DNA of 9,586 nucleotides from Naegleria gruberi (Eukaryota), in assembly GCA_000004985.1 (NCBI GenBank), contig GG739035.1; one strand, written 5' to 3'. Position 1 is the stretch's first letter. Each line of letters begins with the position of its first letter. The position numbers and the translations under genes are program-made. The notes beneath the pieces were generated by a model. The model was not told the DNA's origin, searched no databases, and saw only the letters and a program-made list of their open reading frames with translations. Positions 3,554 through 9,375 of this stretch are shown here, piece after piece.

Positions 3554-5712
3554 NNNNNNNNNNNNNNNNNNNNNNNNNNNNNNNNNNNNNNNNNNNNNNN
3601 NNNNNNNNNNNNNNNNNNNNNNNNNNNNNNNNNNNNNNNNNNNNNNNNNNNNNNNNNNNNNNNNNNNNNNNNNNNNNNNNNNNNNNNNNNNNNNNNNNNN
3701 NNNNNNNNNNNNNNNNNNNNNNNNNNNNNNNNNNNNNNNNNNNNNNNNNNNNNNNNNNNNNNNNNNNNNNNNNNNNNNNNNNNNNNNNNNNNNNNNNNNN
3801 NNNNNNNNNNNNNNNNNNNNNNNNNNNNNNNNNNNNNNNNNNNNNNNNNNNNNNNNNNNNNNNNNNNNNNNNNNNNNNNNNNNNNNNNNNNNNNNNNNNN
3901 NNNNNNNNNNNNNNNNNNNNNNNNNNNNNNNNNNNNNNNNNNNNNNNNNNNNNNNNNNNNNNNNNNNNNNNNNNNNNNNNNNNNNNNNNNNNNNNNNNNN
4001 NNNNNNNNNNNNNNNNNNNNNNNNNNNNNNNNNNNNNNNNNNNNNNNNNNNNNNNNNNNNNNNNNNNNNNNNNNNNNNNNNNNNNNNNNNNNNNNNNNNN
4101 NNNNNNNNNNNNNNNNNNNNNNNNNNNNNNNNNNNNNNNNNNNNNNNNNNNNNNNNNNNNNNNNNNNNNNNNNNNNNNNNNNNNNNNNNNNNNNNNNNNN
4201 NNNNNNNNNNNNNNNNNNNNNNNNNNNNNNNNNNNNNNNNNNNNNNNNNNNNNNNNNNNNNNNNNNNNNNNNNNNNNNNNNNNNNNNNNNNNNNNNNNNN
4301 NNNNNNNNNNNNNNNNNNNNNNNNNNNNNNNNNNNNNNNNNNNNNNNNNNNNNNNNNNNNNNNNNNNNNNNNNNNNNNNNNNNNNNNNNNNNNNNNNNNN
4401 NNNNNNNNNNNNNNNNNNNNNNNNNNNNNNNNNNNNNNNNNNNNNNNNNNNNNNNNNNNNNNNNNNNNNNNNNNNNNNNNNNNNNNNNNNNNNNNNNNNN
4501 NNNNNNNNNNNNNNNNNNNNNNNNNNNNNNNNNNNNNNNNNNNNNNNNNNNNNNNNNNNNNNNNNNNNNNNNNNNNNNNNNNNNNNNNNNNNNNNNNNNN
4601 NNNNNNNNNNNNNNNNNNNNNNNNNNNNNNNNNNNNNNNNNNNNNNNNNNNNNNNNNNNNNNNNNNNNNNNNNNNNNNNNNNNNNNNNNNNNNNNNNNNN
4701 NNNNNNNNNNNNNNNNNNNNNNNNNNNNNNNNNNNNNNNNNNNNNNNNNNNNNNNNNNNNNNNNNNNNNNNNNNNNNNNNNNNNNNNNNNNNNNNNNNNN
4801 NNNNNNNNNNNNNNNNNNNNNNNNNNNNNNNNNNNNNNNNNNNNNNNNNNNNNNNNNNNNNNNNNNNNNNNNNNNNNNNNNNNNNNNNNNNNNNNNNNNN
4901 NNNNNNNNNNNNNNNNNNNNNNNNNNNNNNNNNNNNNNNNNNNNNNNNNNNNNNNNNNNNNNNNNNNNNNNNNNNNNNNNNNNNNNNNNNNNNNNNNNNN
5001 NNNNNNNNNNNNNNNNNNNNNNNNNNNNNNNNNNNNNNNNNNNNNNNNNNNNNNNNNNNNNNNNNNNNNNNNNNNNNNNNNNNNNNNNNNNNNNNNNNNN
5101 NNNNNNNNNNNNNNNNNNNNNNNNNNNNNNNNNNNNNNNNNNNNNNNNNNNNNNNNNNNNNNNNNNNNNNNNNNNNNNNNNNNNNNNNNNNNNNNNNNNN
5201 NNNNNNNNNNNNNNNNNNNNNNNNNNNNNNNNNNNNNNNNNNNNNNNNNNNNNNNNNNNNNNNNNNNNNNNNNNNNNNNNNNNNNNNNNNNNNNNNNNNN
5301 NNNNNNNNNNNNNNNNNNNNNNNNNNNNNNNNNNNNNNNNNNNNNNNNNNNNNNNNNNNNNNNNNNNNNNNNNNNNNNNNNNNNNNNNNNNNNNNNNNNN
5401 NNNNNNNNNNNNNNNNNNNNNNNNNNNNNNNNNNNNNNNNNNNNNNNNNNNNNNNNNNNNNNNNNNNNNNNNNNNNNNNNNNNNNNNNNNNNNNNNNNNN
5501 NNNNNNNNNNNNNNNNNNNNNNNNNNNNNNNNNNNNNNNNNNNNNNNNNNNNNNNNNNNNNNNNNNNNNNNNNNNNNNNNNNNNNNNNNNNNNNNNNNNN
5601 NNNNNNNNNNNNNNNNNNNNNNNNNNNNNNNNNNNNNNNNNNNNNNNNNNNNNNNNNNNNNNNNNNNNNNNNNNNNNNNNNNNNNNNNNNNNNNNNNNNN
5701 NNNNNNNNNNNN
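3554..5712. other. Assembly gap (2159 N).
   Basis: Run of n characters. It hides the body of the 3101 gene and possibly further features. Confidence 0.95.
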
Positions 5713-6103: not shown

Positions 6104-6224
6104 AAAGACTACAGCACCACAGGTTCCCAAGTTGTCTCCAACCTCAGTACTGATGTGGCTCGACGATGCTTAACTTCTCAAATCGGACGGGATGAGGTGC
6201 ATTCATCGTGATATGGCCGTAGCC
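6104..6224 (-). rRNA. 5S ribosomal RNA gene (copy 1, ~121 nt). A Pol III T-run terminator follows immediately.
   Basis: The reverse complement reads GGCTACGGCCATATCACGATGAATGCACCTCATCCCGTCCGATTTGAGAAGTTAAGCATCGTCGAGCCACATCAGTACTGAGGTTGGAGACAACTTGGGAACCTGTGGTGCTGTAGTCTTTT. It carries the canonical 5S hallmarks: a GGCTACGGCCATA 5' end, CCCGTCCGAT, a box-A-like AGAAGTTAAGC, TGGGAAC, and a 3' GTGCTGTAGTC that pairs with the 5' end to form helix I. T4 terminator on the coding strand (plus 6103-6106). An A/T-rich TATA-like element (ctttatattta) lies ~20-30 nt upstream, at plus 6244-6254. End coordinates are +/-2 nt. Confidence 0.9.
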
Positions 6225-6453: not shown

Positions 6454-7623
6454 TTAACAATCATTAATTCGGTACAATGCTTCATCCAACAAATTAATGC
6501 CCAATGTTGAAATAAATTTGAACAACCAACATTGACCATCATCATCAATATTTACAAAATCTTGTCCAATCCATTCTTTCTTAAATGTTGAAATAGCTTG
6601 TTCTCTATTCCCATCACTTTGTTTCAAGATGAGTTTAGTTTGGTTTTTTGGTTTTTTCAAGTCACTGTGTAATCTAGATACAGAAATAGAAATACCTTTT
6701 TCATGAGCTTCACCACTATAGGAAACACTATAGTCAACATCAATCCTCATAGAAAAAGGAATGAGTGCAGTATAATAATCCAATGTAAAGTGAATACTTG
6801 ATATTGTATTGTCAGTATCTCCATCATCAGTTACACTAATATAGGTCAACTTGCGATCTACAGATGTAATGTGAAATCTTGAATAAAGGGATGGTGCAAT
6901 AAGAGTAGTATCAGCATAACTATTATCCTGATGGGTAGTTAAAAAGAAAGCTCTCACAGGTCCAATTCTTGAATGTTTGTTAAAACTTGCGTGTTTTAAC
7001 AAACAAAATTCCTTCATAAATTGATATGAGTGCTTTTTAATCATCTCCTTGCCACTCTTTTTAAATATAGTTGGTTTTGTTGTAAAACGAGTAGTTCTGT
7101 TAATTTCTACATGTGTATCATTGCTGTCGTATTGTGTTGGCCATTTAGTCCAATTTTTCAAACTTTCCAATGTCATATCCCACAATCTACAAAACAATTC
7201 TTGCCACATTCTTTCCTCATCAATCATACCTTCGTACCAAGAACGACAAACCAAAAACACTGATCCATTCAATACACTTTCCAAATCCATAAATGGAACA
7301 ATAGAATAGGCAACAACTTCTGGTGGTAATGATTTGATTAAAGAAGGTACACGTTCCATTTCATATTTTCTCTTCTTTCTTACCAATACATCCATCATCA
7401 AATCACAAAATTCATCATAATTTCGTACTTTCTTATCATCATTCTTTTGATAATTTTCATAACAAGTTGATTCAACAAACTTGAGCATGTGTTCATCTAC
7501 TTGTTCAATTCTTTTCTTTTCCTCTTGTAAGAATTTTTCATAGAGTCTTGATGATTTATTGGATGCTGATTTTTGGTTCTTCTTTGGTGCTTTTTTTGTG
7601 GTGGCTTTTCTCTTTGGCGGCAT
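6454..7623 (-). CDS. F-box domain protein (389 aa, single exon) with a basic N-terminus and an uncharacterised ~290 aa C-terminal region.
   Basis: ATG at 7623-7621 in the context aaaaaaaATGcc, with an uninterrupted ORF to TAA at 6456-6454. Residues ~95-150, LPPEVVAYSIVPFMDLESVLNGSVFLVCRSWYEGMIDEERMWQELFCRLW, match the F-box consensus (LPxEil..If..Ld...L.....VCk.W......d..lW). The N-terminus MPPKRKATTKKAPKKNQKS is Lys-rich and NLS-like. The plus-strand ORFs 7030..7263 and 7049..7309 are antisense shadows. Confidence 0.75.
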   Translation of the reverse strand: MPPKRKATTKKAPKKNQKSASNKSSRLYEKFLQEEKKRIEQVDEHMLKFVESTCYENYQKNDDKKVRNYDEFCDLMMDVLVRKKRKYEMERVPSLIKSLPPEVVAYSIVPFMDLESVLNGSVFLVCRSWYEGMIDEERMWQELFCRLWDMTLESLKNWTKWPTQYDSNDTHVEINRTTRFTTKPTIFKKSGKEMIKKHSYQFMKEFCLLKHASFNKHSRIGPVRAFFLTTHQDNSYADTTLIAPSLYSRFHITSVDRKLTYISVTDDGDTDNTISSIHFTLDYYTALIPFSMRIDVDYSVSYSGEAHEKGISISVSRLHSDLKKPKNQTKLILKQSDGNREQAISTFKKEWIGQDFVNIDDDGQCWLFKFISTLGINLLDEALYRINDC

Positions 7624-8131: not shown

Positions 8132-9375
8132 TTACATTATTGAACATTTCTTCTTTTTGACTTGTACCCTCTTTTTACATTCCTCAATGTATGAGATGTC
8201 TTGTTCAATACATCCTTTCAATAAAGTAAGATTATCAATTCCACCAAGTCTTTGCTTTCTAACAGTTTCCTCAAATATGGCATCGATGTTTTCTCCATTT
8301 TTGGCGCTACATTCAATAATGGAATAGTTCAATAATGAATTATCTGAAACAATTGAATTTACTTCTTGTCTAAAACGATCAATTGTTTCATTTCTATTTG
8401 TGCTAACCAATAAATCCATCTTGTTTAAAACAAACACCACAGGCATATCATTAACTTCAACATCTTTGCAACGTAACATGTTCTCTACGTGTCTACGCAT
8501 ATCTGATACAGAGTTTTCATCACTTGAAGAACATACAATTACAAATGCATCTCCAACTCTCATATATTGATCTATTAAGAGGTATTATTAATTGAATTAT
8601 ATTCCAAAATAAAATCCCTTACCTCTCCATGCTAACATAATATTAGTCGAGTTTCTAATTAAATTTACTTACTAGAAAACTCCTCAGGTCCTAATAGTTA
8701 TCATCAAAATTAGTTAATCATAATTATTGCCAAACATTACAAAAACTCACCTGCAGTATCGAGAATTTCTACCATGGCTGGCTCTTCATCAACCCTAAAA
8801 TACTTTCTGTATGTATCCTCAATTGTCGGATCATATTCAGTAATAAAAATATGCTGAATAAAGAAAATGGTTATTGCAGATTTTCCTTTTTTCATAATTA
8901 TGGTAAGTGTGAAATAAATAGGTCCATAATAAAATTCTATTAGAATCGAATAATAGAATTACTCACCCACTCCTCCTTCCCCAAGCACTATTATTTTAAC
9001 TTCCTCTTGTTGTTGTACATTCGGATCATATTTTGGTCGTTTGTAAAGTTTAAATTTGATATAACTTGCTAATAAAATTTTCCTCTTCATTTCGTCTCGT
9101 TTAATCATTCGTAATCTAAGTTTCTCCAAATCATTTCCAAATAATTGACCAATTCCAAAATTCTTTTCGAATACTTTCCACCAAAAGGCATTGAAATAAT
9201 CTTGCATTTCCTTCATATTCGAAATTTTCTTATTAATTGATTGAAATTTGGCAACCATTCGGATATCTGAATTTCTACTTGATGGATTTTTCAATTCGCT
9301 ATCAGCTCCAAACGATAAAATATGTTGGAATATTTCATAGGGAAGTAATGAGAACAAACTTTCATGTGGAGCCAT
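8132..9375 (-). CDS. Ras-subfamily small GTPase with a polybasic + CaaX C-terminus and a ~125 aa N-terminal extension that carries an F-box-like motif. Five-exon model; the start/end given here are the gene extremes.
   Basis: Exons on the minus strand: 9375..8967, 8885..8751, 8690..8673, 8631..8623, 8571..8132. Introns are 81, 60, 41 and 51 nt, with donors GTGAGT, GTGAGT, GTAAGT, GTAAGG and acceptors aaaaAG, tattAG, tgttAG, aataAG, all in phase 1. The spliced product has the expected Ras motifs: G1 P-loop [16 protein letters not shown], switch [16 protein letters not shown], switch II region [29 protein letters not shown]4 VFVLNKMDL and G5 ECSAKNG. The C-terminus [11 protein letters not shown] is a polybasic stretch plus CaaX (CSIM). 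Start at 9375 is ATG in the context aaaaaaaATGgc; the ORF-track start at 9402 is TTG. The N-terminal extension is [30 protein letters not shown]...[13 protein letters not shown]...FNAFWWKVF. Total 336 aa. Confidence 0.75.

Follow-up and report, generated by a model that had tools for sequence, protein, structure and literature searches.

A five-exon Ras-family gene of Naegleria gruberi with a conserved helical N-terminal module, a candidate F-box, and proline at position 61

Gene organization

The window analysed here, 9,586 bp of DNA, is an entire scaffold of the Naegleria gruberi NEG-M assembly (GenBank contig GG739035.1); it is AT-rich, with about 30-37% G+C outside its two N gaps (1024-1106 and 3554-5712). 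The gene under study lies on its minus strand and encodes a Ras-family GTPase that is preceded by a helical N-terminal module, carries Pro in place of the catalytic Gln61 of Ras, and ends in a polybasic stretch and a CaaX box. Five exons (9375-8967, 8885-8751, 8690-8673, 8631-8623 and 8571-8132) join into a 1,011-nt open reading frame (ORF) of 336 amino acids (aa) plus stop, and all four introns, of 81, 60, 41 and 51 nt, are GT-AG. The features of the gene are as follows.

9040..9375, minus strand: coding region of the N-terminal module (aa ~1-112), delimited from the phmmer family and the AlphaFold2 (AF2) model
9307..9348, minus strand: F-box helix-1-like motif, aa 10-23, with L11, P12, E14, I15 and I19 invariant or nearly so
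8967..9375, minus strand: exon 1, 409 nt, start codon ATG at 9375-9373; N-terminal module in full (aa 1-~120), first beta-strand, and the GEGGVG of the P-loop; ends in phase 1
8886..8966, minus strand: intron 1, 81 nt, GT..AG, from the spliced model and the indels of contig L008
8751..8885, minus strand: exon 2, 135 nt; end of the P-loop, switch I, DTAG
8691..8750, minus strand: intron 2, 60 nt, GT..AG, with a branch-like motif, aactaat, inside
8673..8690, minus strand: exon 3, 18-nt micro-exon encoding (G)PEEFS(T), Pro183 codon CCT at 8688-8686; present in the public model P0001
8632..8672, minus strand: intron 3, 41 nt, GTAAGT..AG, with gactaat 15 nt upstream of the acceptor
8623..8631, minus strand: exon 4, 9-nt micro-exon catggagag encoding (T)WR(D); present in the twin model P0137, not in P0001
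8572..8622, minus strand: intron 4, 51 nt, GT..AG, from the spliced model
8132..8571, minus strand: exon 5, 440 nt, counting the stop codon TAA at 8134-8132; remainder of switch II, NKMD, SAK, a C-terminal helical extension particular to the family, polybasic stretch and CaaX
8135..8176, minus strand: codons of the polybasic stretch (7 of 10 residues basic) and of the CaaX box, whose last residue is Met

The closest database protein to the spliced product is P0001 (XP_002668509.1, EFC35765.1), annotated 'ras family small GTPase [Naegleria gruberi]', with 99% identity.

The Ras G domain and the membrane anchor

A Ras-type G domain had been predicted for this gene from the sequence and was recovered by Pfam hmmscan: Ras (PF00071) matches aa 127-296 with 114.7 bits (cut-off 21.6; E 4.2e-33), far beyond chance. 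The G1 (GxxxxGK[ST]), G2 (Thr35), G3 (DxxG), G4 (NKxD) and G5 (SAK) motifs are all there and align with those of H-Ras; GEGGVGKS occupies residues 132-139, NKMD 240-243 and SAK 279-281, and Pro183 stands directly after DTAG. The AF2 fold, which was made on the public 333-aa model P0001 and not on the 336-aa product, has a mean predicted local distance difference test score (pLDDT) of 82. Its best Foldseek matches are Rap1, K-Ras and R-Ras2 (E ~1e-13, template modelling score ~0.77 on the target), with 39-41% identity to the top matches, Rap1 and K-Ras. By all sequence and fold criteria but the catalytic Gln the protein belongs to the Ras family.

Exon 1 is one ORF for the N-terminal extension, the first beta-strand and GEGGVG. 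Since this exon carries both parts, extension and G domain form a single polypeptide, as had been proposed, and the fusion is no artefact of joining two genes. The end of exon 1 and its GT donor are at the same place in the paralogues L001, L003 and L007; L007 is a metagenome contig that looks chimeric, and it was taken only for the position of intron 1. Over its positions 1-1051 it combines a GC-rich bacterial gene for ribosomal protein L11 with part of a Naegleria-like exon 1 of the family.

The C-terminus of the protein reads KKKKCSIM, and CxxM is found in all full-length family members. A CaaX box with a final Met, Ser, Gln or Ala is of the farnesyltransferase type. The combination of such a CaaX box with a polybasic stretch, which defines a K-Ras4B-type anchor, is present in the sequence, so that the K-Ras-like tail of the original prediction stands, and by analogy with K-Ras4B the protein would be targeted to the plasma membrane.

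The N-terminal module and its gene family

Residues 1-124 were compared by phmmer with 1.84 billion representative proteins. The 14 matches are P0001 itself, a weak repeat protein (P0133) and 12 relatives that have the module at their N-terminus; the relatives that are long enough continue from the module into the P-loop or the Ras domain. At least five annotated N. gruberi proteins belong to the family (XP_002668509.1, XP_002673033.1, XP_002677816.1, XP_002674622.1 and XP_002673059.1). The remaining members are metagenomic, mostly from sample ERR1078381, which contains N. gruberi-like DNA, and none of the members could be assigned to a named species other than N. gruberi. A homology search seeded with the family alignment returned only five members, all known already, and exon 1 used as a query against JGI metagenome contigs gave no relative. 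Spliced products were absent from the records too: neither the exact 336-aa protein nor P0001, P0137 and the spliced L001 and L003 proteins were listed as gene products of a contig. L001 and L003 were considered as orthologues from other species and rejected; they are regarded as paralogues because the same sample has a contig 99% identical to the window and because the L001 product clusters at 90% or more with XP_002677816.1. The metagenomic repeat protein P0133 (292 aa) contains an iterated '...MQTYFDLVWWKMFKS...' unit that is similar to the module's YFNxFWWKVF helix (E 9.8e-4).

The AF2 model of the module is all-helical, with a mean pLDDT of 83.9 and about 90 over residues 11-110. Seven helices are predicted (7-10, 13-23, 31-47, 49-53, 55-73, 77-92 and 96-110), and the residues conserved most strongly are F64, W65, K97, R98 and L102 together with the five of the helix-1-like motif. 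On this conservation and the confident helical prediction, the extension is a conserved, folded domain that defines the family. The family is lineage-specific, and its members share a helical module of ~120 aa opening with LPxEIxxHILSF, a G domain of Ras/Rap type whose nucleotide-binding site is intact and whose effector loop (YDPTIEDTY) is like that of Ras, an extra C-terminal helical segment and the CxxM end.

It had been suggested that the extension resembles an F-box, and part of this suggestion holds. The F-box helix-1 motif LPxE[IL]xxxI[LF]sxL is present. Comparison of the family profile with seven F-boxes by hhalign, six of the seven reference F-boxes having been verified against Pfam, gave a probability of 81.8% (P 1.1e-5) over 21 columns within the LPxEIxxHILSF helix. 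In the controls the reversed profile gave P 0.77, and none of 200 column shuffles reached the score (31.4, against a shuffle mean of 9.4, sd 2.2 and maximum 23.8). The weak Pfam matches that recur or are commonest among the members are F-box-like, F-box, F-box_4, F-box-like_2 and PRANC. The top F-box match in the relatives has an E-value of 0.005 (3 of 10 members), and the full-length sequences score 11.9-15.1 bits against 24.3.

A number of results weigh against the identification as an F-box. The window protein has no Pfam F-box match even at E<=10, no member attains the F-box gathering score, and the matches of the members end after helix 1 (profile positions 1-23). The loop that follows helix 1 has 13-25 residues and is far longer than in the seven reference F-boxes; an alignment that crosses this insertion and reaches FQSI..KI and FWWKVF was obtained at a permissive threshold only and is of low confidence. 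Foldseek with the N-terminal model found no F-box in the PDB and returned no match of any kind; the structure prediction proposed earlier for the N-terminus yielded a confident seven-helix fold. CapV and ThsA, which came up in a search of PDB sequences with the N-terminal family profile at E ~0.5, are at chance level and were rejected.

Taking both sides together, a divergent F-box is probably what the module is, and this is its single likeliest identity as judged from profiles and motif. The alternative that survives best accepts the gene and the family as described and takes the module as a Naegleria-specific helical domain that is not an F-box. Its role could then be, for example, autoinhibition of the switch regions, dimerisation or partner docking, and the LPxEI helix would be convergent or vestigial. 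The absence of Pfam and Foldseek matches and the long loop speak for such a domain, and the helix-1 motif and the controlled hhalign result speak against it; it is a plausible minority reading.

Splicing of the switch II region

The switch II region is divided over micro-exons of 18 and 9 nt. The coordinates of the five exons and of both micro-exons had been given exactly in the original prediction. All GT..AG paths across 8765-8560 with at most three introns, each of at least 30 nt, were enumerated and scored against a Naegleria Ras. The five-exon path is the top one of the 28 that preserve the ORF, with a score of 288 against 267 for the public four-exon model. That public model, P0001, keeps the 18-nt exon and skips the 9-nt exon (...EEFSNQYMR...). 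The twin of the gene, P0137 (XP_002673033.1; 337 aa, on a 337-kb scaffold, ~98% identical), is annotated as ...DTAGPEEFSTWRDQYMR..., which is the five-exon structure.

The paralogues agree with this structure. The PEEFS/PEEYS of exon 3 sits in longer exons in the paralogues, and the switch II regions of two of them, DTAGPEEFSAMRDQY and DTAGPEEYS-AMRDQY, are encoded with no intron or one. L001 (XP_002677816.1) has AGPEEFSAMRDQYLR inside one exon; in the same contig AGPEEFSAMRDQYLRVG also falls inside a single exon, and its intron lies between DT and AG. In L003 the order is DTAGPEEYS, a 42-nt intron and then AMRDQYMR. In the family alignment the five-exon protein runs without a gap through switch II; the 9-nt exon is required for this and matches the AMRD of the paralogues and of H-Ras. 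P0001 in the same alignment shows a 3-residue gap and an Asn that replaces the conserved Asp. The 42-nt intron of L003 is at nearly the same position as intron 3, and introns this short therefore exist in the family; with paralogue introns of 42-50 nt, lengths of 41 and 51 nt are normal for it.

A further comparison is provided by L008, a metagenomic contig that is 99% identical to the window. Its frame-breaking indels relative to the window, of 6 nt and 1 nt, are confined to intron 1, and the frame would break if intron 1 were coding. Its coding indel is in frame, within the poly-Gln run. All three substitutions in exon 5 are synonymous, and exons 1-2 have one synonymous change and two conservative K/R changes. 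On the path score, the twin annotation, the paralogues, the gap-free alignment and the L008 comparison, the two micro-exons, and likewise Pro at Ras position 61, are judged to be genuine features of the gene.

The introns of switch II are shifted between paralogues, by 3 nt for window 8751/8690 against L001 1048/1099 and by 1 nt for window 8673/8631 against L003 2538/2581, and L001 has neither of the introns next to the 9-nt exon. The pattern points to intron sliding, or to intron gain and loss in a young gene family. Three haplotypes of the Ras gene differ in the poly-Gln run (VQQQ, AQQQQ and AQQQQQ). The window copy is on a small gapped scaffold and has its ~98% identical twin on the 337-kb scaffold, and it is probably an allelic haplotig.

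It is improbable that the public four-exon model (333 aa) represents the true or main product, with a switch II shorter by three residues. The model is deposited and in frame with GT-AG sites, a 9-nt exon is hard for the spliceosome to define, and exon skipping has been observed in N. gruberi transcriptomes (PMC6142364). However, in this model the equivalents of Ras 66-68 are lost and D69 becomes N, while all relatives retain these residues, and the twin locus is annotated with the 9-nt exon. It would also need an intron of 101 nt in place of 41 and 51 nt with the exon between them, where the paralogue introns measure 42-50 nt, and its path score is the lower one. Occasional skipping of the 9-nt exon is possible, because skipping keeps the frame. 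A practical gain of the analysis is that the public model XP_002668509.1, from which this exon is absent, can be corrected after its twin. Very unlikely is the reading of the window copy as a decaying duplicate or an assembly haplotig without a function of its own, its Pro61 and micro-exons being noise: the 9.6-kb scaffold with two N gaps and the nearly identical copy elsewhere would suit it, but the ORF is intact, the splice sites are canonical, Pro61 is common to two more distant paralogues, the L008 changes are synonymous or conservative with the coding indel in frame, and even a haplotig would represent an allele of a functional gene.

Position 61 and GTP hydrolysis

At the position of the catalytic Gln61 the protein has Pro183, as had been predicted; this residue is a catalytic feature and is not required for membership of the Ras family. 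The same Pro is found in the twin XP_002673033.1, in XP_002677816.1/L001 and in L003 (DTAGPEE[FY]S). A change at hot-spot position 12, 13 or 61 is present in all six members with a known P-loop and switch II. The substitutions are distributed as follows.

Q61P: window gene and its twin; XP_002677816.1/L001; L003
G12A and G13R: XP_002674622.1
G12E and G13R, without G60/Q61: XP_002673059.1
G12R and G13K, with a degenerate DxxG: L004

Substitutions at 12, 13 or 61 were noted across P0135, P0128, L004 (1560-2230), L001 and L003, and the P-loops of several are degenerate. The Pro61 members are otherwise canonical in their switch regions (Y32, T35, D38, E62-E63, R68-R73).

Ras is normally turned off through GTP hydrolysis. 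The sequences suggest that the family keeps nucleotide, exchange-factor and effector binding but is poor at hydrolysis of the kind stimulated by a Ras GTPase-activating protein (RasGAP). Two points weigh against a protein that is permanently on. A RapGAP-type GAP brings its own catalytic Asn, and such a GAP could still turn the protein off. According to the studies that PMC6813200 summarises, GTP hydrolysis by H-Ras Q61P is ~8-fold slower than in the wild type and cells are not transformed; since this impaired mutant is not transforming, Pro61 need not mean 'constitutively active'.

Proposed function

The reading favoured here, to which we give a probability of about 0.55 as a whole, is that the five-exon gene belongs to a Naegleria Ras family in which a helical module, acting as an F-box that docks to Skp1, is joined to a farnesylated G domain that is poor at hydrolysis. 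From what is known of Ras, the farnesyl group and the basic patch would hold the protein at the cytoplasmic face of the plasma membrane. Pro instead of Gln61 would make intrinsic and RasGAP-stimulated hydrolysis slow, and once loaded the protein may stay GTP-bound like other atypical GTPases. The least certain step is the module, which as a divergent F-box would dock the GTPase to Skp1-Cul1. The abundance of the protein, or of partners that bind its effector loop, could then be set by ubiquitylation and not by GTP hydrolysis, following the logic of RhoBTB and Cul3.

It is a tentative proposal that the module is a working F-box, and that this is the first bona fide farnesylated G domain of the Ras subfamily within a Skp1-Cul1-F-box (SCF) ubiquitin ligase. 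If it were true, the protein would serve as a substrate receptor, anchored to the membrane and permanently loaded with GTP, whose effector loop captures partners with Ras-binding (RBD) or Ras-association (RA) type domains for ubiquitylation. Alternatively, the protein itself might be cleared by SCF rather than turned off by GTP hydrolysis.

Neighbouring elements

Four further elements were located in the window.

6454-7623, minus strand: ORF of 389 aa with an F-box-like match (PF12937) at aa 97-146, E 0.0078
6106-6224, minus strand: 5S rRNA gene, Rfam 105.4 bits
7961-8079, minus strand: 5S rRNA gene, Rfam 105.4 bits
9523-9586, minus strand: 3' end of a further ORF (...DEGLIDQDDYQEELNKILNK*), cut by the scaffold end, ~150 nt upstream of the Ras start

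The first of these had been called a clear F-box protein, which overstated the case, as its match has 16.4 bits where the cut-off is 24.3. Though sub-threshold, this match covers the profile from end to end, and the rest of the protein is without a Pfam match. Both 5S rRNA genes are within identical 124-nt repeats that lie 1,855 nt apart. One starts 52 nt past the Ras stop codon and the other ~230 nt past the stop of the F-box-like neighbour; the 5S rRNA gene next to the Ras stop is also present in L008.

Comparison with known systems

With Ras, Rap and R-Ras (K-Ras4B, Rap1, R-Ras2) the protein shares a complete set of G1-G5 motifs, 39-47% identity and a matching fold, and its effector loop YDPTIEDTY is one residue apart from the YDPTIEDSY of Ras. 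The polybasic stretch and farnesyl-type CaaX are like those of K-Ras4B. It differs from these proteins in Pro for Gln61, in the N-terminal module of ~120 aa, in inserted residues between G4 and G5, and in an additional helical segment of ~25 residues ahead of the tail. Two canonical heterolobosean Ras proteins that were inspected, from N. lovaniensis and Willaertia magna, end in CxxL, whereas the family described here ends in CxxM. Rap carries Thr61. Rap and H-Ras Q61P resemble the protein in that the catalytic Gln is absent in cis, but here Pro61 is a conserved wild-type residue in three distinct paralogues, the window gene and its twin counting as one, a trait that those families lack.

Fusions of an F-box with a small GTPase are an already described architecture, and the original remark that F-box/Ras fusions had not been described was overstated. 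TbFRP of Euglenozoa combines FYVE, F-box and GTPase domains, and its authors connected the F-box with fast turnover of the GTPase; in reverse BLAST the G domain came out nearest to Rab18/Ypt6, and they found no N. gruberi orthologue (PMC3593210). Like the Naegleria protein, TbFRP has a C-terminal small GTPase domain in a protein that carries an F-box, and both come from the supergroup Discoba. Unlike TbFRP, the protein here has a Ras-type G domain, with Ras, Rap and R-Ras as best relatives, and a CaaX box; FYVE is not among the Pfam matches of the full window protein or of its N-terminus. Orthology with TbFRP was rejected because FYVE is missing, the G domain is Ras-like and not Rab18/Ypt6-like, and no N. 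gruberi orthologue was found by the authors of that study.

RhoBTB proteins contain a Rho domain and Cul3-binding BTB domains (PMC3812982, PMC10413933). They are alike in uniting an atypical GTPase and an adaptor domain of a cullin-RING ligase in one polypeptide, and they show how such a fusion can work. The likeness is an analogy in which the added domain is not homologous: BTB and Cul3 stand in place of the putative F-box and Skp1-Cul1, the domain order is another one, and the GTPase is of the Rho subfamily. To our knowledge RhoBTB1/2 have no CaaX box. ARF-family GTPases joined to BTB or F-box domains have been described as recurrent and lineage-specific (bioRxiv 10.1101/2020.10.31.363457). 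These too join a small GTPase with a ubiquitin-ligase adaptor, a likeness drawn from their description, but they are ARF and not Ras proteins and occur in other lineages.

The gene itself is already public, and so is one correct five-exon model, that of its twin. In the open-access literature neither this Naegleria family nor the joining of an F-box to a G domain of the Ras subfamily was found described. What is new is a conserved N-terminal module, probably derived from an F-box, that defines a Naegleria Ras family, together with Pro61 conserved in three paralogues, hot-spot changes throughout the family and one corrected public model. The family may show another way of controlling Ras, in which, as with RhoBTB or Rnd proteins, the switch is governed by turnover of the protein at the membrane, and if the module binds Skp1 a Ras-type case would join the small GTPases that have repeatedly been fused to cullin-ligase adaptors.

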